IMG/VR virus record: IMGVR_UViG_3300049573_000247 | Location: 32,001 to 96,000 of that record | Direction: 5' to 3' (one strand) | Source of the DNA: a virus | Taxonomy: Duplodnaviria; Caudoviricetes | DNA length: 64,000 nucleotides | Shown: piece after piece, positions 17,790 through 60,855 of the stretch | How the letters are laid out: every line of letters starts with the position of its first letter | Position numbering within the stretch: position 1 is the first letter of the stretch | Program-made: the position numbers and the translations under genes | The notes under the pieces: model-generated | The model's database searches: none | What the model was told of the DNA's origin: nothing | The model's input: only the letters and a program-made list of their open reading frames with translations

Positions 17790-17817
17790 TGTCCGTTTTG
17801 TGCGGTAAACTTCCCGT
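17790..17817 (+). promoter_or_regulatory. leaderless promoter of endolysin with TGTCCG box
   Basis: TGTCCGTTTT 17790; TAAACT 17806-17811; ATG 17818; no SD. Confidence 0.65.
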
Positions 17818-18561
17818 ATGTCTGGTTGGCGGGTGGCGCGAAGTCTCGAAGTCCTCAGGGCCGAGATCAACCAGGTCGCACCCAGTCGCAGCACCGCCTC
17901 CGACGGCGCTATCGGCGACGCGGCCCATGCCGCATCCGACTCCGACCACAACCCCAACGACCAGGGCGTCGTCTGCGCCCGCGACTTCACACACGACCCC
18001 GACGACGGAGCGGACATGCACCGCATCTCCCGCCGCATCGTCGCCGTCGCCCCACCGGCACTCAAATACGTCATCTGGAACCGCCAAATCTGGTCGCGCG
18101 CCCGCGCCTCCGAAGGCTGGCGCCGCTACTCCGGCTCCAACCCCCACACCAAACACATGCACGTCTCCGTGGGACGCGGACCCGACGGCCACTCCACCGG
18201 CCCCTACGACGACACCAGCCCGTGGGGCATTGCCACCGGCGCACCGACCCCACCGAAACCGTCGGTGCCCAGCCGCCCCCGACTGATCGAGGAGATCATC
18301 ATGGCGCTCCCGACCATCGACAACAACAACGCGCCAACGGCCGACAAAAAACGCGCCCAGTCCCTCCTCGCCGCGAACGGCTTCCCACCAGCGAACTCGT
18401 TCAACTCGCGAGGCGAACCCGACGGGCAGTGGGGGCCGGGATCAGAGGCCGCACTCAAACGCTTCCAGGTGGCGCGCAAGGTCCGTAACAGCATCCTGCC
18501 CAACGGACAGGGCGACGGCATCCTCGGCGACAACTCCTGGGCCGCGCTGCTGGGCGCCTAA
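17818..18561 (+). CDS. endolysin: M15/LAS-like Zn peptidase + peptidoglycan-binding domain
   Basis: SDH...ARD...HTKHMHVS; Pro linker; DGQWGPGSEAALKRFQ...DGILG..SW. Confidence 0.85.
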   Translation: MSGWRVARSLEVLRAEINQVAPSRSTASDGAIGDAAHAASDSDHNPNDQGVVCARDFTHDPDDGADMHRISRRIVAVAPPALKYVIWNRQIWSRARASEGWRRYSGSNPHTKHMHVSVGRGPDGHSTGPYDDTSPWGIATGAPTPPKPSVPSRPRLIEEIIMALPTIDNNNAPTADKKRAQSLLAANGFPPANSFNSRGEPDGQWGPGSEAALKRFQVARKVRNSILPNGQGDGILGDNSWAALLGA

Positions 18562-19016
18562 GCCGCGCTGGCCGATGCCGAGGGCGCGACCGTCGGCGAC
18601 GGGGACGGGCTGCCGGAAGAAGACGGCGAGGTCGACGGAGAGGGCGACGGCGTCAGCCACGGCGTGTGCGTGGCGGCCTCGTCCATCCCCTCGATGTACA
18701 CGTCGCCGACCGCCAGGCCCTCGAAGACCTCCTCGTCGGCGCACTCCTCCAGCTCGTCCCCCTCAGGGGTCACGAAGTCGACCTCGTTGCACTCCGACAC
18801 CCAGCGGTCGCTGCACACCTGCTTGCTCTCGTAGGTGCGCGTACGGGAGTTGTACACCGACTGGGTGTAGCAGTCCTCCTTCCAGTACCCGGGCTCGTAC
18901 TCCAATTCGGTGACGGTGCCCGCACGAGGCTCCGGGGGTTCCCAGTCGGAGGCGCTGCACGCGGCGCCGACAGCGAGTACGGCGGCACCGGCCGCCGCGA
19001 TCAGGACAGGTTTCAT
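18558..19016 (-). CDS. lipoprotein
   Basis: signal peptide ending GAAC; paralog of 6322-6630; Ser/Pro tail. Confidence 0.8.
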   Translation of the reverse strand: MKPVLIAAAGAAVLAVGAACSASDWEPPEPRAGTVTELEYEPGYWKEDCYTQSVYNSRTRTYESKQVCSDRWVSECNEVDFVTPEGDELEECADEEVFEGLAVGDVYIEGMDEAATHTPWLTPSPSPSTSPSSSGSPSPSPTVAPSASASAA

Positions 19017-19032
19017 TCGGTGGGTTCCTCTT

Positions 19033-19284
19033 TCAGGATTCAGTAGGGTCGCCGCGCAGCAGGTAGATGGGGCGCCCGTCGGGGTCGTAGAGAGCGACGC
19101 CGCCGGTGGACCCGATGGCGAGGCGTTCGATCTTGATGCGATGCCGCTCGGGCACGCTCGGGGCGTGGCCGCAGCCCATGGTCAGGCGTATCCAGGCCTC
19201 GCCGCTGCCGTCGACCTCGTCGATTGACAGCAGCGGCGCGATCTGGCGGCATTCCAGGCAGGTGATGGCGAACGGGTAGGCCAT
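19033..19284 (-). CDS. hypothetical protein
   Basis: CLEC...CGH. Confidence 0.65.
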   Translation of the reverse strand: MAYPFAITCLECRQIAPLLSIDEVDGSGEAWIRLTMGCGHAPSVPERHRIKIERLAIGSTGGVALYDPDGRPIYLLRGDPTES

Positions 19285-19297
19285 GCGGTCGTGTCTA

Positions 19298-19807
19298 TCA
19301 GGCGTCCTGCGGGGCGCTCTCGTGCTGGGGGTGACGTTCGAGGCCGACCGCCCACGCGAGCATATCGTCGATGTGGGCGTACGCGGCGATGTCCTTGCCG
19401 CTGAACAGGGCCACGCGGTCGTTGCCCGGCTGGGGCACGGCGGTGAGCGGCCGACCGGCCATGACGTGGTCGAGCCAGCAGAGCTTGTAGTCCTGCAGAT
19501 CAGTGAGCATCTGACCGGCCCAGCGCGCGGTGGTGCTGAGGTCGCTGATCACGTCCTTGCAGACGCAGATCGTGCTGTAGTCCTCGTCGATGCCGTTGCC
19601 GTTCTTGGCGGTGATCGTGTAGTACACGCCGTCGCAGGCGTCGGTGTGGCGATCGCTTTCGTAGACGCCGTAGTGGGTCTTGCGTCGCGGCTCTGCGTAG
19701 GCCTCGACGATCCTCACGGTGCCCTCGGTCCACTCGGGGACCCGGGAGTCAGCGGTGCGGAACAGGACCGGCTCGTTGACCGCGAACCGGTTGGGGTGGT
19801 CAGGCAT
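19298..19807 (-). CDS. hypothetical protein
   Basis: SD GAGGAG. Confidence 0.7.
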   Translation of the reverse strand: MPDHPNRFAVNEPVLFRTADSRVPEWTEGTVRIVEAYAEPRRKTHYGVYESDRHTDACDGVYYTITAKNGNGIDEDYSTICVCKDVISDLSTTARWAGQMLTDLQDYKLCWLDHVMAGRPLTAVPQPGNDRVALFSGKDIAAYAHIDDMLAWAVGLERHPQHESAPQDA

Positions 19808-19931
19808 AGTATCTCCTCGCATATATCGCAAAAGCCCCCAGATGGGGGCGATAGACTTACAATGGGTGGAAGTCGATCAGGGCTGGCATCTCACCGCCAG
19901 CCCAGACCTCCAGGCACCGGACAGCCGGTGC

Positions 19932-20291
19932 CTACCTTCTCGGGTCGCCGCCCCATCGGGAGGAGCGGCGGCCCGACCTCCACCCAGGATGGTGGGTGGT
20001 CTGCGCCGACTTGCACCAGCGCGTCAACGACCGCTTCCACTCGGCGGCACCCTCCTTCGGCGAGTAGCCGGGGTAGCGCCCGGTTTCGACCACTAGGTCG
20101 ATGATGCGGTGGGCCTCGGCGCGGATCTCCTCGCACGTGCCCTCCGCAACCCGCAGCTCGTCCGCCACCCACCCCTCGGCGTCGATGATGTCCGCTCGGT
20201 CCACGCCTTCGTAGAAGCCGACGCGGAACGCGCCGCCGACGACGGTGATGCGAGTGTAGAACGGAGCCTCGGGCTCGTTCGTGTCGGTCAT
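19932..20291 (-). CDS. hypothetical protein
   Basis: ATGA overlap; SD GAAGGA. Confidence 0.6.
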   Translation of the reverse strand: MTDTNEPEAPFYTRITVVGGAFRVGFYEGVDRADIIDAEGWVADELRVAEGTCEEIRAEAHRIIDLVVETGRYPGYSPKEGAAEWKRSLTRWCKSAQTTHHPGWRSGRRSSRWGGDPRR

Positions 20292-20530
20292 AGGCGATCC
20301 TTCACGTGGTCGAACGCGTCCTCCCAGCTCGCCCCTTTTTCGATCAGGGCGGTGACCTCTTCGACGAGGTCGGCGTTGTCGAGGTCCCAGACGTCGTCGG
20401 GGATCTCGCCGGAGTACCACTCCTCCTTGTCGTAGACGCCCAGCGCCCAGCAGGCGAGTTGGATGATCTCCGGTCGGTCGACGAGGTAATCGTTGTCCTC
20501 ACGCAGCCACGACGGCAGCATGGTGTACAT
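20288..20530 (-). CDS. small acidic protein
   Basis: SD AAAGGGG; Asp/Glu-rich. Confidence 0.7.
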   Translation of the reverse strand: MYTMLPSWLREDNDYLVDRPEIIQLACWALGVYDKEEWYSGEIPDDVWDLDNADLVEEVTALIEKGASWEDAFDHVKDRL

Positions 20531-20713
20531 GATGTTCCCCTTTCCGGTATGCGAAAGCCGCCAGCGCACATCCGTGCACCGGCGGCAATAACCGACAATA
20601 AGGTAGTAAAGCCTCACAAGTGGAAGATTGTGTGTTGTTTCAGGTTCGGGTTGCGCCTCGTGGTGCCTGCTCCAGAGCCGTCACCGCAGGAAGCGCCGCC
20701 CTTCCCCCGTCCA

Positions 20714-21133
20714 TCACCCAGAGGACGCCGTCTCCAGCGCCAGGCCCATCGCCGTCCGGGTGATCACGTACGTCTCGCACGCTCGGGGCCGCAGCTGCCA
20801 CACCCGTGCGTTGCCCTCCCCCCGGAACCGCGACTCCAGCACCACCAGCCGCACGTGCTCGACCAGCGGCGGCACTGGACGGTCGAAGCCCAGCTTGACC
20901 AGCCACGACTCTTCCGACCCCCACGGCAGGCGCACCCCCACTCGCACCGGTGCGTTCGTCGCTCCAATGGCCACCTCCTTGGAGGTCATCGGCACTCGCG
21001 CCAGCAGCTGCTGACGCAACGCGTCCACGCTCGGCCAGGTCAGTACCTGCCGCAGCTCGACTTCCCCGTCTCCGGCCGCATCGGCCAGGACCGCGAAGAT
21101 CCGATCCGCTCCATGCCCTTTCGGCTTAACCAC
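20714..21133 (-). CDS. hypothetical protein
   Basis: -10 TATAAC and SD upstream of GTG. Confidence 0.6.
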   Translation of the reverse strand: MVKPKGHGADRIFAVLADAAGDGEVELRQVLTWPSVDALRQQLLARVPMTSKEVAIGATNAPVRVGVRLPWGSEESWLVKLGFDRPVPPLVEHVRLVVLESRFRGEGNARVWQLRPRACETYVITRTAMGLALETASSG

Positions 21134-21202
21134 GAACGCCCTTCCTGTTATACGATGGTCACGAGTTCACTGCTGCGGCCCGGTTCGACGTCACCGGCCG
21201 CG

Positions 21203-21481
21203 CTAGCGCGAGCGGGCCTCAACCCGCTCGCGCTTCTCCTTGTAGAGGGCGATGATCGCCCTGGCCACTGCTTCCTCCTTGTTCTCCTCCAGCGGGAACA
21301 GGTAGGGCGGTCGCTCCTTGCGCCAGTACTTCACCGCGAAGACGGCGAACCACTCGATCGGGTCGTCGACGCCGGTCCACAGCTCCCGGACGAGCCACGG
21401 CTCGACGCCCGTGGCCATCCGGTCGGCGAGACGCTGCAGCCTCGGATCGGCCTTGAGCGTCTTGATTTCTTCGGTGTACAT
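21203..21481 (-). CDS. hypothetical protein
   Basis: SD GAAGGA. Confidence 0.7.
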   Translation of the reverse strand: MYTEEIKTLKADPRLQRLADRMATGVEPWLVRELWTGVDDPIEWFAVFAVKYWRKERPPYLFPLEENKEEAVARAIIALYKEKRERVEARSR

Positions 21482-21538
21482 GAGGTGTTCCTTCCGTAGC
21501 GTTCACAGCCGCCCCGAGCATCACGCTCGGGGCGACGG

Positions 21539-21820
21539 TCAGCGCTCGGCGAGGGCGTTGAGCTTCGCGGTCTCGACGGCAGCCAGACGGGCGCCCTCCT
21601 TGCGGATGAGCGCGGCGTCCATCGCAAGGCCCTGGGCCTGCCGGTGCACTTCGTCCTTGAGCCCTGAGCGCTCACGCTCGCGGCTCAGCCCGGCGAACAC
21701 GCGCCACAGCATCGCCACGAACCCGAGCGCCAGCATGCCTATCAGGACATACAGCACAGCCGGGAACAGAACGGCGATCACGAGGATGACGGCCCCGATC
21801 CAGAACCAGATACGCAACAT
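21539..21820 (-). CDS. membrane protein
   Basis: two N-terminal hydrophobic helices. Confidence 0.75.
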   Translation of the reverse strand: MLRIWFWIGAVILVIAVLFPAVLYVLIGMLALGFVAMLWRVFAGLSRERERSGLKDEVHRQAQGLAMDAALIRKEGARLAAVETAKLNALAER

Positions 21821-21846
21821 GATTTCTTCACCTCCTCTCAACGAAC

Positions 21847-21878
21847 TGCGCCCCCGAGCCGAACGGCTCGGGGGCGCA
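21847..21878. terminator. hairpin
   Basis: tgcgcccccgagcc-gaac-ggctcgggggcgca. Confidence 0.6.
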
Positions 21879-21893
21879 GCAACACTTCACGCG

Positions 21894-22133
21894 CTAGGCG
21901 TCGTTTTGCGCTTGCATGGTTTTGTACAAGGCAATACCCTCCTGCACCGTCACCAGCAGCTGATCGACGTTCTTGTCGAACACCCTGAACTCGATCGGTG
22001 TGGTGTTGCCCTGAGGGTCAAGTGCGTGCATCCTCAACACGAGATCCATGCGCCCGGGGAAGGGGCTGCTGACGCCGCCGACCTCTATGCCCTCCAACGC
22101 GAACTGCTTGGTGCGTTTGACCTTCTTCTTCAC
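21894..22133 (-). CDS. hypothetical protein
   Basis: GTGA overlap. Confidence 0.65.
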   Translation of the reverse strand: MKKKVKRTKQFALEGIEVGGVSSPFPGRMDLVLRMHALDPQGNTTPIEFRVFDKNVDQLLVTVQEGIALYKTMQAQNDA

Positions 22134-22741
22134 TGCGCCTGCCGTTTCGTCTCTACCGCGATCAGGACACTGGCCACATCCTCCGGGTCGACCACGCCCT
22201 CGCCTTCCAAGTAGACGGTGACCGCCTCGAAGAAGTGGTCAGCGCGGCGCCCGAGGACCGACGCCTCGTGCGACTGGGACAGCGTCTGTGATGCGAGGGA
22301 TTCGGCCTCCACTGTCAGCCGCAGCAGCGCCCGCAGCCCCGGGGATACGGAGGGATACTCGACGGCGGCCTCGGCCATGGCGGTCAACGCGACCTGCGCG
22401 ACCGCGCACACGTGACGGCGAGCGAGCTTGTCGAGCGTCCCCAGGGCGTTGACGACCGGCAGGTCGTCCATGTCCCAGGTCTTCAGCTCCTCGCAGATGG
22501 CCAGCACCCGGCTGATCGAAATGATCGGGGCCATCGCCTCCTTCGCGGCGTGGTCGCCCACCCACGCTTCGAGCTGTTCGGCGTCGAAACTGTGCAGCAG
22601 GGCGGTGTTGTTCATGACGATCGCCGCCAGATCCCACAGCCACGCCATCGTCTGCGGGCAGGCGCCGATGGCGTTTGCTTCGCGGCTGGAGACGCACGCG
22701 GCCCAGCCGCGCTGCATCAGCTTGCTACGGTCGGTCACCAA
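22130..22741 (-). CDS. hypothetical protein
   Basis: 203 aa ORF in coupled run. Confidence 0.7.
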   Translation of the reverse strand: MVTDRSKLMQRGWAACVSSREANAIGACPQTMAWLWDLAAIVMNNTALLHSFDAEQLEAWVGDHAAKEAMAPIISISRVLAICEELKTWDMDDLPVVNALGTLDKLARRHVCAVAQVALTAMAEAAVEYPSVSPGLRALLRLTVEAESLASQTLSQSHEASVLGRRADHFFEAVTVYLEGEGVVDPEDVASVLIAVETKRQAQ

Positions 22742-45616: not shown

Positions 45617-45979
45617 CTACTCCGCTTCCGCGTACACCCGCATAGCGCCCTGATGCGTCCGGAACGTCAACCCCTCCGGAGCAACCGAACCCGGCTCCAC
45701 CAGCGAACCCAGCTCCGTATACACCACCGGGAACGGACCCACCAGACGCAAATCCGGGTGCCCGAACGACTTCAGATCCCGCGCCATACGCGCAGCATCC
45801 GCATACGACGCCGCATCCTGGCACCACGGGTCCGCCTCCGCATTCGGAGTGACCCACACCGACCACTGCTCGTACACCACCGAGCCGTCCCAGTCGCGCC
45901 CGAAATAGCACCCGACCTCAACCGACTCGATACAGCCACCCATGACCTCAAGCTGCGAAAACATTCGAACCTCCTTCAC
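45617..45979 (-). CDS. hypothetical protein
   Basis: SD AAGGAGG before ATG 45964. Confidence 0.65.
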   Translation of the reverse strand: MKEVRMFSQLEVMGGCIESVEVGCYFGRDWDGSVVYEQWSVWVTPNAEADPWCQDAASYADAARMARDLKSFGHPDLRLVGPFPVVYTELGSLVEPGSVAPEGLTFRTHQGAMRVYAEAE

Positions 45980-46149: not shown

Positions 46150-46538
46150 GACCCGTCCTCTCACATTTCCCGGGCGCACCAAGGGACCCGCCCACCCGAA
46201 GGCAGGCGGGTCCCAACTCACCCGGATTTACCGTATGACCCGCACGTCGACATGATTGCCGCTCACCCACATCCCTCCGGTTCGGTGGCCGGAAGCGCGG
46301 GGCCGCGCTCGCTCTACTCCGCGTGCCAGGTCTGCCCTCTGGGGACAACTCGCGCGCACCGACACCCAACCCGCAAGGGAAGGCACCCGATGCGCATGAA
46401 AAATACTCAGAGATCCGACCTTATGACTCGTAACCCGCTAGACAGTGTCCAGATTGTCCCGAATTTTATATTTCATGTGTGGTCTGTTCATGTTGGGGCC
46501 GCACGGGTTGCGTTGGTTTTGTCCGTTTTGGGGACATG

Positions 46539-46563
46539 AAAAAAGGCCGCCCGTGGGCAGCCT
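46539..46563 (-). terminator. intrinsic terminator
   Basis: aggctgccc-ac-gggcggcc followed by T6 on minus strand. Confidence 0.8.
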
Positions 46564-46584: not shown

Positions 46585-47469
46585 TCACTTTTCGACTTTC
46601 ACGAAGGTTGCGAGGTCCTTCAGGAATTGTCCGAATTCTCCGGACTTGTAGCGTTTGGGCAACCCTTGGGTCAAGCTGGTCACTTCGCTAGGCGAGTAAA
46701 GGTCAATATCGACCATTTCGCCCGGTTCGATGCGTGAGGCCAGTTCCCGTAGCGTGTCGCTGCGGTTGTCGCCTGCCAGCTTGCCGCGCTTGGCTTGAAT
46801 GTCGTGCACCCTTGCGAGCATGACGAGCATGTCGCGCGGGATTGCGAGCGTGTACCGGTTCGCGACCGGTTCGCCAGCGCTTGCGGGTTCGGTTGCGTCT
46901 CGCATGACGTTCGCGAGCGCTTCCCTTGCCGTAGGGTCGCTTTTGTACATAAGGTGCTTATTGCGTGCCGTGAGTGGTTTATCCACCCCGGCACCGTGCG
47001 GCATGACGTACTCGATACCGCCCGTAGACACGTGCCGCTTTTGCGAGCGCGCTTTACGTGCGATCGGAGAGAGCTTGTCAAGATACGCGTCCGATGAGAA
47101 CGCGTCGATTGCCGCGTGATAGTAGCCGGTTTTGCGGTAGCGGTCGCGCGCTTCCGTCGAAATACCCGATTCATCCCTATGCGGGAGGTTGGGGCCTTCC
47201 GACAGTTCGCGCACATCCATCACTGCGGGAGCGTGCTTGCGGTACTTACCCGCAAGCGCCGCCGCGTGATTGGGGCCGCTAACGATACCGTCGGCCGGGA
47301 AAGTCGTCTGCGCTGGCGTAAGTTCGCCACGATTGCCCTGATATGAAATTCGGGCGTCGTAGGCGTGTTGCGCCATCGCTTCCGCGTTTTGGTCCGACCG
47401 GATTTGCTTGGCGCGTTCGGGAGTCTCGTAAGCCTCCACATCCGCAGCCGTGATGAATGCTCTATGCAT
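46585..47469 (-). CDS. isolated basic 294-aa protein with atypical (lower GC) codon usage
   Basis: long ORF, SD GAGG, own terminator. Confidence 0.75.
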   Translation of the reverse strand: MHRAFITAADVEAYETPERAKQIRSDQNAEAMAQHAYDARISYQGNRGELTPAQTTFPADGIVSGPNHAAALAGKYRKHAPAVMDVRELSEGPNLPHRDESGISTEARDRYRKTGYYHAAIDAFSSDAYLDKLSPIARKARSQKRHVSTGGIEYVMPHGAGVDKPLTARNKHLMYKSDPTAREALANVMRDATEPASAGEPVANRYTLAIPRDMLVMLARVHDIQAKRGKLAGDNRSDTLRELASRIEPGEMVDIDLYSPSEVTSLTQGLPKRYKSGEFGQFLKDLATFVKVEK

Positions 47470-48064
47470 GGCAAACCTCTCGGTAGCTAGTCCTCGCGCA
47501 ACTATCCCCTTCGCATATAGCTAGCCGTGGCACAGTTCACCCCCAAGGGAGCGCCCAGCGCTGGGCGGGATTCGTCGCGCGTCTGCGCTTCAAACACACT
47601 GTTCGGTTAAGGCGGCCGCAATGAGGGCCGCACGGTGACAACATTCGCCTGCCCGGGTTCTGCGCCCCCTTGCGGGTTCGCGTCGCTCGGAAGCGATGAC
47701 ATAACTATGTCAGACGCCAGCGCGGGCCGTTTTCACGGGCCTTGAGCTGGGGTTTCATTTTGTCCGTTTTGCGTTTCGCCTGGTCATGGGCTTATGGGAG
47801 GAAATGGGGTCGGCCCTTGGGGGGTCATGAGAGCGCTTGCCAGAAAGGTCACGGTTTGGTAAAGACTGCGTATGGGCTGGTCATGGGCTCAAGATTCCTG
47901 AAATTCGCACGGTATCGACATTGTGGACAGTCGAGCGGTAAGCGCTTGCCTTACACAGTGGACAGTCACAGTAGTCACGCTAGGCAACAGACGTCACAAG
48001 CGGCCAGCGCGCGCCCGGATCGCAGGCTGTGACAGAGGGAGGCTAGCGGTGCGAGACGATACGG

Positions 48065-48268
48065 ATGAGGCATTGACGGCGTGAGCTGGGAGGATACAGC
48101 GTTTCGCCTGGTAGATTCGTTGCACTGTCGCAAGTGGAGCCGGGAGCGTCCAGAGTGGACGGCTTGGGGCTGTAGTGGCGTACGCCTGCCAGCGCGACAG
48201 GATTAGTCGAATGAGGCAATGCGGCCGTGAGCTGCGGAGATACGCGTTTCCGCTGGTAGATTGCTTGC
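48065..48268 (+). repeat. two imperfect ~58-bp direct repeats (48065, 48211)
   Basis: ATGAGGCA..G...CGTGAGCTG....GATAC.GCGTTT...CTGGTAGATT..TTGC. Confidence 0.85.
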
Positions 48269-48644
48269 GACCGGTTCGCCTAGGCCGCTAGGGCAGGCGT
48301 AGCGCGCTCCTGTGGCGCGGCCTAGGCCACGGGTAGGGACGCGCCACGGGAGCGGCGTAGGGACGCGTACAGCGGCCTAGGCAGGCAGGCGGGTACGCCT
48401 GCCCTAGCCCTCTCCGCACGGTGCGCATGTGTGCGCGCGAAATAGCACAGTGCCGCGCTGGCGTCAAGTCATGGACAGTGATTGTTATCGAGTCGTGATG
48501 TCGTGCTGGCACGGAATGGAGCGCTCCCAAAAGTGGAGACGCTGGTCAAGCGCACATTGCGTGCATACCGAGTATGAACACATTGTTCACGGAATGCCAC
48601 ACCGCGAGACGCCAGCTACGGAACGCAACCACACAGCTACACAG

Positions 48645-48860
48645 AGACAGTCCACATGAGAGGCAGATAACCGCGCGGCAAGTGCCAGCACGCTAAACCG
48701 CAGATTCCACAAGAGACGCCCACAGATTCCACACAGGACACGTCCACAAGAGACACGCAAGCCTCCACATCGGACGCCCACACAGGACAGACACGAAACC
48801 ACACGTCCACACACGACAGTCCACACAGGACAAGTCCAAAATCGACAGTCCACACAGGAG
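48645..48860 (+). repeat. array of TCCACA / CCACACAGGA boxes
   Basis: TCCACA at 48651, 48706, 48728, 48743, 48764, 48806, 48820, 48849. Confidence 0.85.
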
Positions 48861-48952
48861 GGCCGATCCGTCGACAGTGGACGCCACCCCCTTAAAAGAT
48901 AGGGGGGGTCGTGAAATTTTCCGAGATCATCATGGTAGCACGTGAAGGATGT

Positions 48953-49252
48953 TCACGCCTGGGGGTGGCGTTTTCCGGGGGCGGCTGGTCTGCCGATGGT
49001 GGGGCTTTGGGCTGCGCGTTGGTGGCTGAGGGTGATGCGTTGTTGGTTCCAGGTTTTCCAGTCGTGTTCGCGTTCTTGGAGCCAGAGGGGGGTGGGGGTG
49101 GTTTTGTTGCCGATGAGGTGTGCGTCGGGTGGTGGGCTGGGGAGGTCGGGGTCGTTGTGCCATTTGTTGATGAGGTGGTTGATGTTGCTGGGGGCGTATC
49201 CGAGGGTTCTGGCGATGTGGCTGGTGGTGATGTAGGTGGGTGGGGTGTTCAT
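48953..49252 (-). CDS. small HTH DNA-binding protein
   Basis: YITTSHIARTLGYAPSNINHL...PPPD...PLW. Confidence 0.7.
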   Translation of the reverse strand: MNTPPTYITTSHIARTLGYAPSNINHLINKWHNDPDLPSPPPDAHLIGNKTTPTPLWLQEREHDWKTWNQQRITLSHQRAAQSPTIGRPAAPGKRHPQA

Positions 49253-50280: not shown

Positions 50281-50964
50281 TTAGAGGCGTTTCCCGGGCT
50301 GGTATTTCTCTCGTGTTTCGAGGTAGTCGTCGGGTAGCTGTTCGACGGGCCCTGGGGCGGGGAGGCCTTGCACGTGCCTGGCGAAGTACTGGGCGAGTGG
50401 CTGTCCGGCTTGCCAGAGGTGGCGGGTGTAGTTGCGCCACGGGGTGACGACGTCGGGGTCGGTGAATCGGATGTTGCGGTCTTGGACGCCGTGTTCGTCG
50501 TAGGTGTGGAGGTAGAGGACGGTGTCGTCCATGGTGCAGATCTCGGGGAGTTCGGAGCCGTAGGTGTGTTCGTCGCCGGTGGTGACGGTGGTGGGGAGGA
50601 CGCGGATGGTGCCTTCGAAGATCTCGTCGCGTAGGCGCAGCAGGTGGAGTTCCCATTGGAGGTAGGGGCCGATGGGTTCGTCGACGATGCGGATGCGGCG
50701 TGCGGTGATGTCGTGTTCGGTGGTTTCGCCGTAGTGGGCTTTGAGGTCGGCGCGGCGTCCTTCGATGAGCTGGAGGGCGAGGTTCCAGTTCCCGCGTTGG
50801 AATGCCTGCCATGAGGCGTCGTGTGGTTCAGCGAAGTGTGTGGCGCGTTCGAGTTTCCAGAATTCGGTGGCTTGCCAGAAGCGGGTGTTGAAGTCGGCGA
50901 AGAAGGTTTCGTCGGGGAGGTACTCGCCGTCGGTGGGGTCCAGTGGTGGTGGGACGGTCGTCAT
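50281..50964 (-). CDS. DUF6879 family protein
   Basis: FWKLER..F.EP..SW.AF..G.W; RRIRIVDEPIGPYLQWE; LPE. Confidence 0.85.
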   Translation of the reverse strand: MTTVPPPLDPTDGEYLPDETFFADFNTRFWQATEFWKLERATHFAEPHDASWQAFQRGNWNLALQLIEGRRADLKAHYGETTEHDITARRIRIVDEPIGPYLQWELHLLRLRDEIFEGTIRVLPTTVTTGDEHTYGSELPEICTMDDTVLYLHTYDEHGVQDRNIRFTDPDVVTPWRNYTRHLWQAGQPLAQYFARHVQGLPAPGPVEQLPDDYLETREKYQPGKRL

Positions 50965-51145: not shown

Positions 51146-51169
51146 TGTCCGGTTCTGTACGATTTGTGT
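51146..51169 (+). promoter_or_regulatory. leaderless promoter of terS with TGTCCG box
   Basis: TGTCCGGTTC 51146; TACGAT 51158-51163; ATG 51170. Confidence 0.65.
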
Positions 51170-51811
51170 ATGTCGAATTGGGATGAACCGATCGAACTCG
51201 ATGAAGACATCGAGTTGTGGGAGCAGCAGCCGGGCGAGACCGACGAGCAGTACACCTTGTTCAAGATGTACATGAAGCTGTCGCCGCAAGCCGACACGGA
51301 CAGCCGTGAAGTGCTGCCCCGTCGGATCTCCGAACTGTTCGGCAAGACCGACTTCTCCGACCGACACGTCAAGCGCCTCGCACGCCGCTACTGCTGGGAG
51401 GTGCGGGCTCGCGCGAACGACCTCGCGAAGGTCCAGTCCGTGCAAGGCCAGCTCGAACACCACTGGCTCGTCCTGGTCGAGAACCGGTTGAAGCAGCTGT
51501 CGAAGGCCGAAGAGATGATCTTCAAAGCCATGGAAGTGATGCTGCAGGAAGCCGACACATGGAAGCTTCGCGACCTGGTCTTGCTGTGGGAGACATCGGT
51601 GAAGGTCGGCAACGGCATCCTCGGTATGACCCGACTGGGCGGACCCGAGCAGGCTGCCGTCGCGCATGCCATGGCCACCTCCCGCACCGAAGTCACCGTC
51701 GGCGGCGCCGGTGACTCGCTTGACGCCCGCACCATCGAACTTGCCGAGGAACTCCGGCGCAGGGCCGAACTCGCCACCGCTGCCCCGGCACCGGCGATCG
51801 AACAGGACTAG
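51170..51811 (+). CDS. terminase small subunit-like protein
   Basis: WEQQPGET..Y..F..Y...W..RA.A.D pattern plus helical C-terminus. Confidence 0.7.
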   Translation: MSNWDEPIELDEDIELWEQQPGETDEQYTLFKMYMKLSPQADTDSREVLPRRISELFGKTDFSDRHVKRLARRYCWEVRARANDLAKVQSVQGQLEHHWLVLVENRLKQLSKAEEMIFKAMEVMLQEADTWKLRDLVLLWETSVKVGNGILGMTRLGGPEQAAVAHAMATSRTEVTVGGAGDSLDARTIELAEELRRRAELATAAPAPAIEQD

Positions 51812-52170
51812 TCGACGACGCGCTGCTGCTGCTCGATGAGTTCGACCAGCGCGCGCAGATCATCAGCGACCGCGCTGGCCCGCTCGGTCAACGTCATGAT
51901 CAGCAGCGCGTTCGGCCGTTTGATGTCAGGGCCGGGAAGGAGCGCCCCGGGTTCGACCTCCAGCGCTTCGGCTACGAGGACGAGATCGGTGACGCTGATC
52001 GGCTGCGAGCCCACTTCCCAGCGGGCGATGCTGACCTGATGGACGCCGACTTCCTCGCCGAGCCGCTCCTGCGTCCACTCGCGCTCTTTACGGACCTGCG
52101 CGATCCGGCGCCCGACCAGCGGCACGATCTGCGTGGCATACCCGGGACGCTTGAACTTGCGCGAGGACAT
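51808..52170 (-). CDS. XRE-family HTH regulator
   Basis: GRRIAQVRKEREWTQERLGEEVGVHQVSIARWEVG. Confidence 0.9.
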   Translation of the reverse strand: MSSRKFKRPGYATQIVPLVGRRIAQVRKEREWTQERLGEEVGVHQVSIARWEVGSQPISVTDLVLVAEALEVEPGALLPGPDIKRPNALLIMTLTERASAVADDLRALVELIEQQQRVVD

Positions 52171-52286
52171 CCGTATCTCCTTCATGATGGCGGCGTGGCG
52201 TATTGATCATCGCCGACGACGCCCCGCTACCATCAGCGGGTACTTCATGTTCGGTCTGTCACCCTCACCATGGAACAGGAGCGCCT

Positions 52287-55144: not shown

Positions 55145-55152
55145 TGCTGCTC

Positions 55153-56667
55153 CTAGAACAAGTCGGTAGTCGACCAGTCGACGGGGTCGGCGTGGATGCT
55201 GATGCCGATGGGGGGTTCGATGATCTCGCCTCGCCCGTATCCCGATCCTTTGAGGAGTCCCTGGGCGAGGTAGACGGTGGCGTCGATGCGTCCGGGCGAC
55301 TCTCGCGAGCCGGGTTGCCAGGTGGTCCACTGCTGGATGAGTTTGTCGTGTTCGCCTACGAGGCGGATGTCGCCTTGTACCCAGTATTGGGCAACGGGGT
55401 CCGCGCGAATGCGTTTTCCGTATCGGGCGCGAACTTCATCTATTCGGGGGATGGGGACATCGGGCGGAATGGTGCCGTCCTCCTCCAGATCGGACCATGC
55501 CGACTGGATCTGGAGTTTGCACATCTCGCCGCCGAAGTTCGTCTCCACGAAGATGACGTCGGCAGTCAGCTCGTAGGACATGAGAGCGACCTCGCGGGCC
55601 CACTCGGTGGGTGAGGCCTGTCGGGATTTGTCGTGGGTGATGTAGCAGCGGTGGTCGTCGCCGAGGAATCCGGCGACGATTCCGGCTTCGTCGCCGCCTG
55701 CGGTGCCGGAGGGGTCGACGGCGACGGCGACACGCAGTTTGTCGGGGAGCGGTTCCCCGGGGCGGTGCCGGGAGGCTTCGATCTGTTCGAGGTTGAGGAG
55801 TGCGCCTTCGGCGGGCTGGGGGTCGCATTGGAAGAGCGCGAACCAGTCGCGTTTGGACAGCGAGGATTGGAGGCCGCCCCAGTGGGCGAGGAGCGCGTTC
55901 GTGTCATCGTGGGGGATTTTGGGGTGGCCGAGGGGTTCGCCGAGGGCGCGGCCGAGCGGGTCGTTGGATTCGACGGCGATCGCGGGGAGGCGGATGACGT
56001 CCCATTCGTCGCCTTCGCGTTTGAGGAGGCGACCGGCTATGTCGTCTTCATGCCAGCGGGTGAGCACGAGGACGATGGGGGCGCCGGGTGAGCCTCGGGT
56101 GAGGAAGGTGGAGGTCCACCAGTGGTCGACGGCGTCGCGGAACAGCTTCGATTCCGCTTCTTCACGGTCTTTGTGGGGGTCGTCGCAGATGAGGAGATCG
56201 CCGTCATGGCCTGTCAGACCCGAACCGACACCGACAGTTTTCATGCCGCCGCCGGTAGTGAGCTTCCAGGCTTGGGCGGTGCGTGCTTCGGGAGAGATGG
56301 TGAGGCCGAGCTTGTGGCCGTGCTCGCGGACGGCCTTGCGGACGTCGCGGCCCCAGTTTTTGGCGAGGTCGGAGCCGTAGGCGGCGGCGACGACCTGGTG
56401 ATGGGGGTGGTGGGCGAGCCACCACAGCGGGAATTTCTTGGTGACCAGCTCGCTTTTGCCGGTGCGCGGCGGCGCGAAGATCATGATCTTGCGTTTGCCG
56501 CCGGGTTGGCGCAGCCGTGCGAGGCGCTCGCCGATGAGTCGGTGGTGGGGGCAGATCTGGTAGCGGGGTTCGAGCCACGCGCCGAGGCTGGCGGGATCGT
56601 GGAGCGCCTGGACGCGCGCGGCGTAGGCGTACAGCTCCGCGTCAGACAGCTTCGAAAGATCCGGCAT
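55153..56667 (-). CDS. terL: terminase large subunit
   Basis: Walker A PPRTGKS; LTG..GDLLICDDP.K; TRWHEDD; nuclease VAVDPS, ETNFGG, SPGRIDA. Confidence 0.95.
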   Translation of the reverse strand: MPDLSKLSDAELYAYAARVQALHDPASLGAWLEPRYQICPHHRLIGERLARLRQPGGKRKIMIFAPPRTGKSELVTKKFPLWWLAHHPHHQVVAAAYGSDLAKNWGRDVRKAVREHGHKLGLTISPEARTAQAWKLTTGGGMKTVGVGSGLTGHDGDLLICDDPHKDREEAESKLFRDAVDHWWTSTFLTRGSPGAPIVLVLTRWHEDDIAGRLLKREGDEWDVIRLPAIAVESNDPLGRALGEPLGHPKIPHDDTNALLAHWGGLQSSLSKRDWFALFQCDPQPAEGALLNLEQIEASRHRPGEPLPDKLRVAVAVDPSGTAGGDEAGIVAGFLGDDHRCYITHDKSRQASPTEWAREVALMSYELTADVIFVETNFGGEMCKLQIQSAWSDLEEDGTIPPDVPIPRIDEVRARYGKRIRADPVAQYWVQGDIRLVGEHDKLIQQWTTWQPGSRESPGRIDATVYLAQGLLKGSGYGRGEIIEPPIGISIHADPVDWSTTDLF

Positions 56668-56695
56668 AACCCGAATCTACCTGAATGTCCGTTTC
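56668..56695 (-). promoter_or_regulatory. leaderless promoter of terL with inverted TGTCCG box
   Basis: TAGATT 56679-56674, 6 nt, ATG 56667; TGTCCGTTTC 56686 on + strand. Confidence 0.65.
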
Positions 56696-56709
56696 ATTCA
56701 GCTATGAGA

Positions 56710-57045
56710 GTTCTGCGCCGCGCTGCTATCGCGCTTCGAGCCATGAAGCAGCGCGGCGCAGAACCACACAGGCCCCCCGGGACGACAGACCCCTCCTGTG
56801 CGCTGTAGTGCGGCCGTGTCCGATGCACGCCGCACGCGGCAAGTACCCACCTTGCAGTCTGCGATTGCGCCGGGTCACCCCGTCTGTCCAACGGGGCCTT
56901 CGGAACCTCCGATGCTACCTGGAGGTGTGGCCTCACTGGTACGCGCGTCACTTCGTACCGTACGGAGCGTCTCCGCTAACGTCCGCCTCTCCTGTGGCCC
57001 AGGGGGAGGCGACTGGCGGTGAAGCCACATGTGCCAGCTGCCTGT
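56710..57045. ncRNA. candidate multi-stem structured RNA upstream of terL
   Basis: nine or more stems covering most of a 335-nt intergenic region. Confidence 0.55.
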
Positions 57046-57046
57046 T

Positions 57047-57289
57047 TTATAGCATCCCGTCGGCGCCGTCGCTCAACCACAGCCCGAACCCGATGGTGCC
57101 CTCAGCGTGGCCACTGGAGTGCCTGACCATCCACGCCAGTGCGGCCTCGCGCGTGGGGGCGGTGGCGCAGGCGCTGCACGATGCGCGTCCCTGGCAGCAG
57201 ATGACCACCGGGTAGCAGTAGCCGATGTCGTCCAGCAGCCGGTTGAACGACCACAGCGGCGTGCCCGCGATCAGCGCATCAGGGTTCAT
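57047..57289 (-). CDS. small Cys-rich protein
   Basis: CC...CSAC...H. Confidence 0.6.
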   Translation of the reverse strand: MNPDALIAGTPLWSFNRLLDDIGYCYPVVICCQGRASCSACATAPTREAALAWMVRHSSGHAEGTIGFGLWLSDGADGML

Positions 57290-57638
57290 GGCCTGATGGT
57301 AGTGGGGGCGGCGGGGCCGCGAGGTCGTCTTCGCCGATGAAGTACGCGCGCGGCGCGGTCCACCATGCGATCGGTTGGCCGCTGTCACCGGTGAACGGCG
57401 GATCGCCGTAGAGCACGAACACGCCAGGCACCACCGTGATGTACCCCTGCGGTGCGTCGGAGCCGTAGTCGTCCCTGTCGCGGCGTCCGACGTGGATCTG
57501 GATGCCTGCATCGAGCTTGCCTTCGACATCGGTGGCCCAGTCGGCCAGGCGCAGCATCAGCCGCGACTTCAGATCGGGAGGGCACACCAGCGTGATCGGT
57601 GGCTGGGACAGATAGGAGTCGTCGATCTGCTCGCTCAC
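57279..57638 (-). CDS. hypothetical protein
   Basis: GTGA overlap. Confidence 0.65.
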   Translation of the reverse strand: MSEQIDDSYLSQPPITLVCPPDLKSRLMLRLADWATDVEGKLDAGIQIHVGRRDRDDYGSDAPQGYITVVPGVFVLYGDPPFTGDSGQPIAWWTAPRAYFIGEDDLAAPPPPLPSGHEP

Positions 57639-57982
57639 ACGGTCTCCAGGTCGTCGGGGAAGTCGGCGGCGGTGATCGTGAACGAGGGACCGCGCAGCAG
57701 CTTGTGCCACCAGCGCCACCGGATTGTTCTGCCCCGCGACGTGAACGGCAGCGGCCCGTACTGGTCGAGCATCGGTGCCTCCACGGTCCAGTAGGCCATG
57801 CTGCGGCAGCCGCAGGAGGAGGCGGTGCGCAGGTGCAGGCGCGCATCGGTGCGGCCCTCGGGCGTAGCGCACCACGAGACCAGCGCCTGCGCGAGGCGCT
57901 GCTTCACTGCGTCGTCCTGCGGCAGCAGTTCGATCAGGCGCGGATCGCGGCGCACCGGTGCGGGGAGCGCCGGGTCTCTCAT
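57635..57982 (-). CDS. hypothetical protein
   Basis: ATGA overlap. Confidence 0.65.
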   Translation of the reverse strand: MRDPALPAPVRRDPRLIELLPQDDAVKQRLAQALVSWCATPEGRTDARLHLRTASSCGCRSMAYWTVEAPMLDQYGPLPFTSRGRTIRWRWWHKLLRGPSFTITAADFPDDLETV

Positions 57983-58401
57983 CGCTGCTCCGTGTCGGCA
58001 GGGACGGGTGTCCATGGCAGCGCGATATCGTCGCCGTCGCTTCTGGGAAGGTAATGCAGATGCAGGTGGTCGACGGTCTGGGTCGCTTCGGCGCCGATGT
58101 TGATGATGAGGTTGAACGGCTTGCGCTGGGCCAGGGCGTACTGCCATGCGGCCATCCACATGTACGCGGTCGGCGAGTGGCTGACAGCGACCCCGTGGTC
58201 TCTGGTGACGTGCAGGCGCGGGATGAACAGCACGTGACCCTCAACCCGGGGGTTGAGGGGGACGATCGCGATGGCGTTGGTGAACTTCGCGACGACCTGG
58301 GCCGGTGCTTGACCGGTGATGATGCGGCAGAACGGGCACGGGCCGTCGACGCGGGCGTCCACCTCGTTCTTGCTCGCTGCTTGACTGGACGCCCGCGTCA
58401 T
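57979..58401 (-). CDS. HIT-family nucleotide hydrolase
   Basis: CPFCRII; PLNP..EGHVL.IP; QTVDHLHLHYLPR. Confidence 0.93.
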   Translation of the reverse strand: MTRASSQAASKNEVDARVDGPCPFCRIITGQAPAQVVAKFTNAIAIVPLNPRVEGHVLFIPRLHVTRDHGVAVSHSPTAYMWMAAWQYALAQRKPFNLIINIGAEATQTVDHLHLHYLPRSDGDDIALPWTPVPADTEQR

Positions 58402-58850
58402 GCTCCTGCTTCCACAGTGTATCCGATGGATTCTCGTGTCCACATCGAACACGGGCCGGTGGTGTCGATGAGGTGCTGTTCGCCCGGCGGGACGATGCCG
58501 CCGGTGGCCAGCTGATGGCGCTGGCGCCGCGCGCAGGCGGCGATGCCGACCTCGGGGCGCTCACCGGTGCGACGCTGGCGGGCGAGGTACTGCTTCGCGC
58601 GGCGACGCTCAGCTTTGGTCGTGCGCGCCTGGGGCATGAGCCCGGCAGCACGCAGCTGTGGTTCGAGAACATCGGACAGGCAGGCGGACAACTCGCTGAA
58701 GGAGGCCTGCAGGCCCTCGACGGCGTCAGCGAGGGACTGCCCCACGGTGTGCATGTACGCCTGCAAGGACGTGAACGGAAGATCGGTATCGGTCACCGAC
58801 CTATATTCGCGCACAGCGGCACCGAAATCAGGGATAGAACAGCTTCGCAA
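58398..58850 (-). CDS. hypothetical protein
   Basis: fills operon gap; start uncertain. Confidence 0.5.
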   Translation of the reverse strand: MRSCSIPDFGAAVREYRSVTDTDLPFTSLQAYMHTVGQSLADAVEGLQASFSELSACLSDVLEPQLRAAGLMPQARTTKAERRRAKQYLARQRRTGERPEVGIAACARRQRHQLATGGIVPPGEQHLIDTTGPCSMWTRESIGYTVEAGA

Positions 58851-59391
58851 CGCGCAGCGCTGCCCGCTTGCACTTGCGGGCCGCTCGTATCTGGCCGCTG
58901 TTACTGGTGACGACCGCTTTTATGAACGCGCCGTCGGGGTCGTAGTGCATCTCCATGAGCTTGGCGTGGTCGGTGTCCTCGTCGAACAGCCAGAAGTCAT
59001 GGCCCATCTTGCGGACGTGCTTGATCCACTGCCCCGGTTCGACCCACGCGATGCGGATGTTCTCCCCGGCCGCCTTGGTTTCGGCGTAGACGGCCAGCTC
59101 GAACCGGAGGTAGTCGTTGAGCGCCAGTCTCCCGGTCTCGTCGGTGGTGCGCTCGATGACGTGCACGCGTCCGATGTCGCGGCCGTGCTCCACGGCAGGC
59201 GCGATGACGTTCTCGATCCACGGCTTGACGTGGCTCATGTCCCTATCGCCTGCGAGGAATCGTTCGAAGGCGTCCTGTTCGTAGCCGACGTCGTAAGCCT
59301 GGAGGGTCTCCAGGCGCCACGCCGAGTCGGTAAAGCCGGTGAAGTACGCCTCGAATTCCGGGTCATCGAGGCTCGTGATCGTTGTCGGCAT
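58828..59391 (-). CDS. DUF6879 family protein
   Basis: F..SAWRLET..Y; GRVHV; DYLRFE; AGENIRI; DFWLFD; MHY. Confidence 0.88.
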   Translation of the reverse strand: MPTTITSLDDPEFEAYFTGFTDSAWRLETLQAYDVGYEQDAFERFLAGDRDMSHVKPWIENVIAPAVEHGRDIGRVHVIERTTDETGRLALNDYLRFELAVYAETKAAGENIRIAWVEPGQWIKHVRKMGHDFWLFDEDTDHAKLMEMHYDPDGAFIKAVVTSNSGQIRAARKCKRAALRVAKLFYP

Positions 59392-59406
59392 CGTGGTGCT
59401 TTCTGG

Positions 59407-59736
59407 TTAGGGCCTGCGCCAGCGCTCCCGGATGCGGGCGGCCATGCGCATTCGCCTGCCTGATCCGCCGCATGCATCGCACATGGTGAACGTTTTCTTC
59501 CAGATGTACTTGGCGAAGTGCTTGCCTCGGCCTTTGCAGACTCGGCACGGTTTTTGGTCGCGGATGAAGGCGCCGTGGACGAACCAGACGATAACAAAGG
59601 CAATGGCGGCAATGATGACGGCGGTGCGCAGCTGCGGATAGTCGACCAGGAGTTCCCAGATGATGAGTCCGATGTCGCGCAGGATGCTCCCGATGGCGAG
59701 GGCGAAGGTGCCCAGCGCTGGCCAGAGGTCGCTCAT
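59407..59736 (-). CDS. membrane protein with CxxCxGxG Zn finger
   Basis: TM helices; PCRVCKGRG...CDACGGSGRR. Confidence 0.8.
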   Translation of the reverse strand: MSDLWPALGTFALAIGSILRDIGLIIWELLVDYPQLRTAVIIAAIAFVIVWFVHGAFIRDQKPCRVCKGRGKHFAKYIWKKTFTMCDACGGSGRRMRMAARIRERWRRP

Positions 59737-59737
59737 G

Positions 59738-60232
59738 TCACCGTGTGGTCTGGGCGTTGGTGATCTGCTCAGCTGCTTGTTCGAGCTGGGCGATCACCGC
59801 TTTCGTGCCTTCGACGCCGTCGTCGAGCTGCGGCAGCATGGCCATGATCGAGGCGACGGCGGTGTTCTTGGCCTCTTCGACGGCTCCGGTGAGGGTGGCG
59901 AAGAAGTCGTTCGCGGCACCGGCATTGCTGACCGCGTTCTGGCAGGCCTCCTGTGCGGCCAGCACGAATGGCAGTGTGCCCTGTCCGGCGCTGGTCGTGG
60001 CCGAGACGTGCTCTTCGGCGGGGCCGATGGTGGCATCGACTGAACCCTTGGTCGCGTCGGCCTGCGCTGCAAGCGAGGTGACCAAGCCCTGGAGTTCGCT
60101 GAAGGCGGCGATGACGGCTCCGGCGGTGGCCTCGGCGGTGGTTTTGAGGTGCTGTTCGCTCTGCGTGGCGAGGGCCTGCGCTTCTGCGGTAGCGGCTGTC
60201 ACGGCGGCGGCGTGGTCTTCGGAGGCGCTCAT
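59738..60232 (-). CDS. Ala-rich helical protein
   Basis: SD GAAAGG; Ala/Thr/Gln-rich. Confidence 0.75.
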   Translation of the reverse strand: MSASEDHAAAVTAATAEAQALATQSEQHLKTTAEATAGAVIAAFSELQGLVTSLAAQADATKGSVDATIGPAEEHVSATTSAGQGTLPFVLAAQEACQNAVSNAGAANDFFATLTGAVEEAKNTAVASIMAMLPQLDDGVEGTKAVIAQLEQAAEQITNAQTTR

Positions 60233-60351
60233 GAACATCCTTTCGGTGCTGGGTGATTCGTGAGGATATCCCACGTCCTCATGGGACCGGTTTTCGCCCG
60301 ATACCAGAGACAAGTACGTTTTTGAACTAGTTCGTCGTGCATTTACACTTT

Positions 60352-60372
60352 TGTCCGGTTTATGCTGTTGTG
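60352..60372 (+). promoter_or_regulatory. leaderless promoter of head operon with TGTCCG box
   Basis: TGTCCGGTTT 60352; TATGCT 60361-60366; GTG 60373. Confidence 0.65.
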
Positions 60373-60855
60373 GTGGATGACTGGCTGACGATCGCGCTTG
60401 CCCTGGCCATGACGGCCAGGATCACGAGGCTGATCACGTTCGACACGATCACCCAGCCGATCCGCGATCGGCTGCCCGGACTGCTCGGGGCGCTGGTCCA
60501 GTGCCCTTGGTGCTCCGGGTTCTGGGTCGCCGTCGCAGTCGGCTTCTCCTGGCACTGGTGGGCCGACCAGACCTGGTGGCAGATCAACGCACTGATCTGG
60601 GCGCTCTCCTGGTTCGCTGGAGCCGTTTCCAACGCTGCGATGCCCGGTCAGCATGAGGTCGCCATGGTCGGACCCGTCGCACTGCTCAACGCCGACGAAC
60701 CGGTCCGCGAAACCGTCGAACGGGTCGAGACCACCAACGAGATCCACATCGACACGCGCGAGGAAGCCGACCCCGAGGAAATCGCCCGGATCGTCGTCGA
60801 AGCACTCCAGCGCGCCAAGTGGGGTCCGGCGAACAAGGCGGGCGGGTCTGACTGA
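60373..60855 (+). CDS. DUF1360-like membrane protein
   Basis: ARITRLITFDTITQPIR...LVQCPWCSGFWV. Confidence 0.85.
   Translation: MDDWLTIALALAMTARITRLITFDTITQPIRDRLPGLLGALVQCPWCSGFWVAVAVGFSWHWWADQTWWQINALIWALSWFAGAVSNAAMPGQHEVAMVGPVALLNADEPVRETVERVETTNEIHIDTREEADPEEIARIVVEALQRAKWGPANKAGGSD

Follow-up and report, generated by a model that had tools for sequence, protein, structure and literature searches.

How can a phage switch on late genes together when they are scattered along its genome? The question is raised by the stretch of DNA analyzed here, called the window, which spans 64,000 nucleotides (nt) and corresponds to bases 32001 to 96000 of G000, a 141,154-bp IMG/VR virus record judged 99% complete by CheckV. 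An earlier note on the window had proposed that the endolysin gene, the small and large terminase genes (terS and terL), and the head operon share a leaderless promoter design and a TGTCCG(G/T)TT box. We find that the box is a one-way motif placed at the core promoters of late units, and its placement suggests that it probably serves late genes as a DNA-level regulator site. Positions are those of the window unless they are given as genomic or window-equivalent. Genes were called with a codon-usage log-odds model trained on G000 itself, which yielded 227 genes. G001 to G005 and L-numbered sequences (L008, L009, L014, etc.) are relatives or loci used in comparisons, and coordinates on L007, L094, L095, L097, and L098 refer to pieces of G000.

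A one-way intergenic motif marks late units

The word TGTCCGKTT occurs six times in the window, at 17790, 46520, 47761, 51146, 56686, and 60352, where 0.71 copies are expected; six or more copies were found in none of 100 shuffles. The six coordinates in the earlier note are thus all correct, and the motif stands above background. The whole genome contains seven copies, all on the plus strand, and the same word spelled backwards, our control, occurs once forward and once in reverse. When intergenic and coding DNA were compared, every one of the seven genomic copies was intergenic by our own gene calls; intergenic DNA makes up ∼12 to 16% of the genome. The note had called the copy at 56686 inverted, which holds relative to terL; as a strand it is no outlier, since it lies on the plus strand like every other copy.

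A wider pattern, TGTCCGNTT, extends this picture. Across G000 and four relatives oriented alike, we counted 41 forward and 5 reverse copies; G000 has nine, plus a few variants, and its reverse strand, which carries ∼190 genes, is without any. The logo of the 46 copies from five genomes reads W-TGTCCG-n-TTT-R-T, and the search pattern itself dictates T at box position 3 in all 46. It is asymmetric and dyad-free and consists of a single conserved block. Of the nine sites that adjoin a gene, eight point in the direction in which the downstream gene is transcribed; terL is the exception. Other plus-strand units embedded in minus-strand arrays (starts at 1380 and 12342; genomic 1485-3089) have no box.

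The box marks lysis, packaging, head, and tail units. The dispersed late set of endolysin, terS, terL, and the head operon does share it, as had been claimed, and the set extends to the major head, major tail, and tail-fiber genes and to a gene at the chaperone position. The seventh exact copy, beyond the window at window-equivalent 64928 (plus strand), lies upstream of the major head protein gene. Four intergenic plus-strand copies with one mismatch follow: at 68240, upstream of the major tail protein gene, 8 nt past a stop codon in a gap inside the late operon; at 75114, upstream of the tail-fiber gene; at 79460, upstream of a gene that occupies the usual position of a tail assembly chaperone and has no family match; and at 107187, upstream of a weakly RepO-like gene, 0 nt from a −10 hexamer. 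A literature search for the motif string returned primers only. The TGTCCGnTT motif is new, a clade-specific one-way DNA site at the core promoters of late units.

The box adjoins −10-only promoters at variable spacing

At the endolysin gene, terS, terL, and the head operon, the gap between the end of a TANNNT hexamer and the start codon is exactly 6 nt, in agreement with what the earlier note had stated for all four. None has a Shine-Dalgarno (SD) sequence: the duplexes with the anti-SD at these starts range from −2.9 to −3.9 kcal/mol, and our threshold for an SD call was −5.5 kcal/mol. The N termini encoded by these four boxed genes, leaderless by design, are conserved in relatives, which supports the assigned starts.

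The endolysin gene (17818-18561, plus strand, PHROG matches) is a lone plus-strand gene among minus-strand genes. Its box, TGTCCGTTT (17790-17798, plus), lies in the 80-bp divergent gap upstream and is kept in G001 and G002, and its −10, TAAACT (17806-17811, plus), begins 7 nt past the box and ends 6 nt before the ATG at 17818, with the spacing kept in both relatives. On the minus strand, TATCGT (17784-17789) abuts the 5′ side of the box and is a candidate −10 for the divergent gene at 17249-17737, which has an AAGGAG leader; the box thus sits between two divergent TANNNT hexamers. Upstream of terS (51170-51811, plus, PHROG terS), the box TGTCCGGTT (51146-51154, plus) is followed after 3 nt by TACGAT (51158-51163, plus), 6 nt before the ATG at 51170. 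The box-to-start segment is identical in G001 and G002, where the upstream flank has diverged.

The terL gene (55153-56667, minus, PHROG terL at 6e-84) has an N terminus that is kept in relatives. Its −10, TAGATT (56674-56679, minus), lies 6 nt before the ATG at 56667 and is the same in L008, L009, and L014; G003 has TATATT with 7 nt. The box (56686-56694, plus) is placed 6 nt upstream of this −10 on the opposite strand and is kept in L008, L009, L014, and L015. At the head operon, TGTCCGGTT (60352-60360, plus) directly abuts TATGCT (60361-60366, plus), which lies 6 nt before the GTG at 60373. The start had been placed at 60370, where relatives have TGG, and we therefore moved it to 60373. The first gene of the operon (60373-60855, plus) belongs to phrog_781, of unknown function, and is followed by the portal gene (60855-62594, by PHROGs).

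More generally, a TANNNT hexamer occurs within 8 nt of 7 of the 12 G000 sites, compared with 11.8% of random intergenic positions (P = 1.5e-4). The distance between box and −10 differs among sites: the two abut at the head operon and at 107187 (0 nt), and they are 3 nt apart at terS and 7 nt apart at the endolysin gene. Any given site keeps its own value, which is 0 nt for the head operons of 11 of 11 relatives, 3 nt for terS of both G000 and G003, and 7 nt for the fiber gene of both G001 and G003. If transcription starts on the start codon, the head-operon box covers about −21 to −13, the terS box −24 to −16, the endolysin box −28 to −20, and the inverted terL box −27 to −19.

Two further promoters add to this variation. 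At the capsid gene, a conserved extended −10, TGgTAATGT, which even the relatives at 52% retain, is completed by the first three bases of the box. A leader hairpin begins 5 nt past the box, and its pairing is kept through five compensatory changes; transcripts must therefore start at or before the onset of the hairpin or read through it. At the fiber promoter of G000, the upstream box was lost by a short deletion and TATAGT was kept, with a box variant now 5 nt downstream of the hexamer. The varied spacing (0, 3, or 7 nt), the overlap with the −10 at the capsid gene, and the inversion at terL agree with the earlier view of the box as a protein-binding site rather than a sigma element.

In the capsid leader hairpin itself (L007:1514-1545, window-equivalent 64941-64972), GGCGTGGGTGA forms a conserved loop and five of the pairs are compensatory among eight relatives; an invariant second hairpin, CTGGC-N6-GCCGG, follows this one in the major head leader. 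We considered TATCCA, past the capsid box, as a −10 and hold it to be doubtful: it is TGTCCA in L010 and L011, and the covarying hairpin begins inside its expected transcription start site (TSS).

The leaderless design is a general habit of the genome

The earlier note had treated the leaderless design as a mark of late genes, which it is not. TANNNT-N6-start is found at 13 of the 227 genes, against 0.34 expected, and 9 of the 13 have no box; most late structural genes carry an SD. That early genes nearly all use SD leaders is true only roughly, since ∼76% of minus-strand genes pass the SD threshold, and it provides no contrast, since ∼74% of late plus-strand genes do so too (random positions, ∼28%).

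Actinobacterial promoters of the principal sigma factor that consist of a −10 alone give leaderless mRNAs (PMC4633059). The promoters in G000 resemble them in that TANNNT ends 6 nt before ATG or GTG, within the 6 to 7 nt expected of this class, with no SD and no conserved −35. They differ in that 4 of the 13 have an extra, clade-specific box beside the −10; the transcription starts in G000 are predicted ones. The leaderless design is thus an ordinary actinobacterial arrangement and a general habit in G000. In our own reading, the unboxed leaderless promoters also lack a −35 and a TGn extension and are no better than the boxed ones in −10, −35, or TGn extension. If the unboxed promoters have no stronger core, the late ones should fire unless they are gated.

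The box is kept while its flanks diverge

A search with the portal protein found relatives with 96% to 51% portal identity. The box stands at the same four places around the portal gene in relatives down to 52% portal identity, with diverged upstream flanks. Whole-genome counts of forward/reverse boxes in relatives, in the orientation of each record, were strongly one-sided, at 9/1, 1/8, 0/5, 0/2, and 2/1. An alignment of 11 head operon sequences contains the invariant block TTGTCCGkTTTATGCTG; the 50 nt upstream are variable, and therefore there is no conserved −35. The promoter of terS in G003 has kept box (TGTCTGATT)-3 nt-TACGCT-6 nt-ATG, though the terS protein is only 36% identical. In G004 and G005, only the −10-proximal half of the terS box, CCGGTT, is left, abutting TAAACT. 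Near their capsid genes, 23 more distant relatives, seven of which are Streptomyces prophage loci, have no box.

The genome has no DNA-level match among reference-collection phages by megablast. Its terL is at best 42% identical to the terminases of Saccharomonospora and Gordonia phages. The closest capsid relatives within bacterial genomes are prophage loci; the top-scoring ones, with 41 to 49% identity, are mostly in Streptomyces.

A possible gate on host-type late promoters

What, then, does the box do? We propose that the late promoters are host-type promoters with only a −10 (TANNNT), which would be read by the host RNA polymerase with its principal sigma factor, and that four of them are placed so that transcription would begin on the start codon and give leaderless mRNAs. 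One sequence-specific DNA-binding protein, presumably encoded by the phage, would bind the box and so switch the scattered late units together. Bound there, it would block the promoters, as happens at the operator and stoperator sites of Cluster A mycobacteriophages, and the block would be lifted late in infection or on induction. A blocking gate is favored because the box changes place from site to site, within the polymerase footprint or at its border, across the −10 and even inverted, which a fixed activating contact would explain less easily. Taken as a whole, the view that a regulator encoded by the phage gates late promoters of the host type, with blocking the more likely mode, seems to us an evenly balanced proposition; that control through the box is negative is, on its own, a tentative call that falls slightly short of that.

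Neither sigma region 2 (Sigma70_r2) nor WhiB was found in the part of the proteome that was scanned; a sub-threshold sigma region 4 match lies inside a DUF742 protein. By our own gene calls, no protein besides the tape measure exceeds 760 amino acids (aa). No polymerase-sized protein argues for no phage RNA polymerase, and from the two negatives together we infer that the host polymerase is used throughout.

Several observations weigh against this proposal. The sites are co-directional with the downstream gene by ∼8:1, yet a simple steric blocker need not be oriented. The ∼190 minus-strand genes carry no boxes, and the binder would therefore not be a genome-wide immunity repressor like gp71 of phage L5. 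Among phages, repressors specific to late genes are less common than late activators. No −10 adjoins the copies at 46520, 47761, and 16259, the major-tail site and the 79460 site are without a canonical −10 nearby, and the candidate binders introduced below are domain matches.

The strongest competitor, which we consider possible and clearly less probable than the blocking gate, is a positive late-promoter element: an activator or polymerase-remodeling factor beside the −10 would replace the missing −35 contact, as with MotA/AsiA of phage T4, and late promoters would fire once the factor is made. This would account for the strong orientation bias, co-directional with late genes; for the lack of a conserved −35 upstream of the box; and for the close contact of box and −10 at several loci, as in G004 and G005, where the −10-proximal half is what remains at terS. 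Late activators are also the usual phage solution. However, with spacings of 0, 3, and 7 nt such a factor would contact the helix from different faces, the copy at terL is inverted, and the capsid box overlaps the conserved extended −10 and the discriminator. The fiber TATAGT of G000 was kept after its upstream box was lost, and the unboxed leaderless promoters are no better in −10 or −35. No MotA/AsiA-like or sigma-like gene turned up in the scanned part of the proteome, in which homologues of MotA and AsiA were not searched for specifically.

It is improbable that the box instead acts in RNA, as a boxA-like word that together with a hairpin would serve processing, stability, or antitermination of late transcripts. 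Strict strand specificity fits such a role, as do hairpins 5 to 15 nt past the box at the capsid, tail, terL-side, and 46520 sites, with five compensatory pairs in the capsid hairpin. On the other hand, the box lies upstream of the inferred TSS at the four leaderless genes and therefore would not be part of those mRNAs, the terL copy is on the noncoding side, the wrong strand, and the association with TANNNT is a feature of DNA.

Equally improbable is a core promoter element of an alternative sigma factor or a phage polymerase, with a TSS at a fixed distance. The box resembles the promoters of phage polymerases in that it runs one way, lies between genes and ahead of late ones, and often precedes 5′ hairpins. 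Yet the logo has no second conserved block at a fixed spacing, there is neither a Sigma70_r2 match among the scanned proteins nor, by our gene calls, a polymerase-sized gene, and the distance from box to start codon at SD-less genes is 12, 15, or 19 nt, whereas TANNNT-N6-start is exact in all four. On the same grounds we rejected a bipartite promoter of the alternative-sigma or extracytoplasmic function (ECF) type (no second conserved block, no sigma region 2 gene among the scanned proteins) and a phage RNA polymerase promoter (no polymerase-sized gene); for SigF/SigB-type GTTT-N-GGGTAT, the spacing is inconsistent by eye.

The earlier note had also suggested that the box is a site for the Streptomyces regulator AdpA that ties late genes to host development, which is very improbable: TGTCCGGTTT differs from the consensus TGGCSNGWWY at one position and the nearest capsid prophage relatives lie in Streptomyces genomes, but no box copy fits the consensus, which has G where box position 3 is T (fixed by the search pattern); the consensus itself occurs 11 times in the window against 9.9 expected, with none of the 11 a box; the box is missing from the 23 distant relatives with their seven Streptomyces prophage loci; and the G+C content of G000, 65.6%, is below the ∼71 to 73% of those seven loci. 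The distance of one position held for the two TGTCCGGTT copies and not for the five TGTCCGTTT copies, which are off at two of the consensus positions.

Other identities were examined and set aside. A replication-polar or Chi/KOPS-like word is contradicted by the lack of an orientation flip across the putative origin and by the intergenic position of all copies, and pac or terS recognition repeats are contradicted by the scatter of copies over 90 kb. TGACCGTTT at 88427 is a gene start instead (ATGACCGTT, which aligns from the first residue in G003). The DnaA box of Streptomyces has the consensus TTGTCCACA, of which GTCCACA is the core. Our box has TTGTCC in common with it and lacks the CACA half, and GTCCACA repeats cluster elsewhere (48650-48854).

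Relation to described systems

In Cluster A mycobacteriophages, the site of a monomeric repressor is an asymmetric 13-mer that occurs at promoters and in short gaps between genes, in an orientation tied to transcription (PMC9283540). These operators and stoperators, known for L5 gp71 and the TipsytheTRex repressor (PMC9283540), share with the box an asymmetric site of ∼13 bp, dispersed copies, and an actinobacterial host. In G000, too, sites stand at promoters and in operon gaps (e.g., 68240), and their orientation follows transcription. However, G000 has only ∼9 to 13 sites, compared with >20 over both genome arms in Cluster A, and they occur nowhere but in late units and the control region, so that the minus-strand arrays are free of them. 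The sequences are unrelated, no gp71-like repressor was found among the scanned proteins, and both binding and its sign are predictions in G000. The Cluster A operator/stoperator is the closest described design, yet not the same system.

The middle promoters of T4 offer another likeness: there, a 9-bp asymmetric MotA box ahead of a −10 of the host type takes the place of the −35 and sets the temporal class. The MotA box stands at a fixed 11 to 13 bp from the −10. In G000, in contrast, the spacing is 0 to 7 bp and the terL copy is inverted, so no fixed distance is kept. A more speculative and unlikely idea is that a large plasmid-prophage-like actinophage uses a monomeric, orientation-dependent regulator to gate its late promoters and no others, from changing positions at −10-only leaderless promoters; the regulator would then be a late-specific relative of the stoperator or an actinobacterial counterpart of sigma appropriation.

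As it stands, G000 is one more phage that puts one regulator site on many promoters, which is of a familiar kind. For a family of large uncultured actinophages (70 to 142 kb), the box offers a sequence-based entry to the timing of late genes: the 13-nt word predicts late-class genes, including isolated endolysin and terminase genes, and can serve as bait for finding the regulator. If it is indeed an oriented gate on −10-only leaderless promoters, the stoperator idea would extend beyond Cluster A mycobacteriophages, and compact, portable promoter-operator parts for actinobacterial genetics could follow.

Candidate binders

Candidates for the binder include an XRE helix-turn-helix (HTH) protein encoded at 51808-52185 (domain match); a 99-aa protein (48953-49252) that has an HTH-like motif by eye, adjoins the repeat array described below, and is kept in G003; and an Xis-like HTH protein (L095:9739-10098), the DUF742 protein (L097:17346-17720), and an HU-like protein (L098:6404-6724), all three domain matches. 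Another is a 401-aa HTH-TPR regulator (L097:64-1269, minus strand, phrog_10886; 29% in G004), in which an XRE-type HTH at the N terminus is combined with TPR repeats at the C terminus. Peptide-sensing regulators such as AimR share this plan of XRE-type HTH plus TPR. No immunity repressor annotation was found by Pfam or PHROGs among the ∼75 of 227 G000 proteins that were scanned, and W92661, considered as a repressor, is RNA-ligase-like instead.

Two DUF6879 paralogues are encoded on the minus strand at 50281-50964 and 58828-59391; in G003, the homologue of the first comes directly after the gene for the XRE HTH protein, and the two genes diverge from terS. The DUF742 (PF05331) gene adjoins a Roadblock/LC7 (PF03259) gene and a 191-aa gene (L097:16733-18129, left of the window); the DUF742 and 191-aa genes are kept in G003. 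We take this cassette to resemble the conservon-type order cvnB-cvnC-(cvnD).

Boxes away from late promoters and features around them

Two boxes stand in or at the edge of a noncoding control region. The first (46520-46528, plus) is followed 15 nt later by a terminator hairpin flanked by an A-run and a T-rich run, the intrinsic terminator (46544-46563, minus) of the gene at 46585-47439. The second (47761-47769, plus) marks the left edge of a 1.5-kb stretch with no convincing open reading frame (ORF) and points to the GTCCACA array; the two boxes bracket the gene at 46585-47439. There is no leaderless gene at 46520, because the ATG just after the box is ACG in G001; the small ORFs after both boxes were rejected as genes, since their ATG is not kept in G001 and they look noncoding. 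A one-mismatch variant, TGTCGGGTT (16259-16267, plus), lies between two minus-strand genes, and the orthologous site in G002 is the exact TGTCCGGTT. Inside the 3′ end of the portal gene, TGTCCGCTT followed by TAGGAT (62507-62515, plus) has at position 7 a synonymous Arg codon base (C, G, or T in relatives), and judging from this its conservation may be due to coding alone.

In the 380-bp gap upstream of terL there is a long perfect hairpin (56705-56767), with further stems to 57045; Rfam searches of this gap gave chance microRNA-like matches only. The plus-strand box at 56686 would be placed to drive this hairpin-rich stretch beyond it. Just upstream of the fiber promoter, inside the late operon, a tRNA-Met gene lies on the minus strand (L094:10892-10966, window-equivalent 74892-74966).

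Genes left of position 60,000 of the window are almost all on the minus strand, and structural genes are on the plus strand from 60373 to ∼86800. A consensus-type −35/−10 promoter, TGAACA-16-TAAAAT (46463-46490, minus), one of two in the 44.5- to 64-kb region, lies 30 bp from the box at 46520 and points left into minus-strand genes; it may be the main leftward early promoter. A 115-aa protein gene (45617-45964, minus) borders the noncoding control region in both G000 and G003. Its product is 90% identical in G003, compared with 40 to 75% for most shared proteins, and has no match in Pfam, PHROGs, or the ESM Atlas.

Signs of a temperate, regulator-rich lifestyle come from the ParA-like, XRE, and HTH-TPR proteins that G000 encodes and from the prophage relatives in Streptomyces genomes. 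The ParA/MinD-like ATPase gene (L095:3563-4279, window-equivalent 87563-88279, minus), which G004 and G005 also have, may point to a prophage kept in a plasmid-like state. The ends of the record carry an exact 126-bp direct repeat (genomic 22-147 and 141029-141154), which is either a short terminal repeat or the assembly overlap of a circularly permuted genome. Finally, the 1.5 kb at 47440-48952 contain no convincing ORF and harbor repeats at 48629-48860, with five plus-strand GTCCACA in 205 bp (48650-48854) and five CCACACAG words. The cumulative GC skew has its minimum at ∼46 to 48 kb, and this stretch is probably the replication origin.

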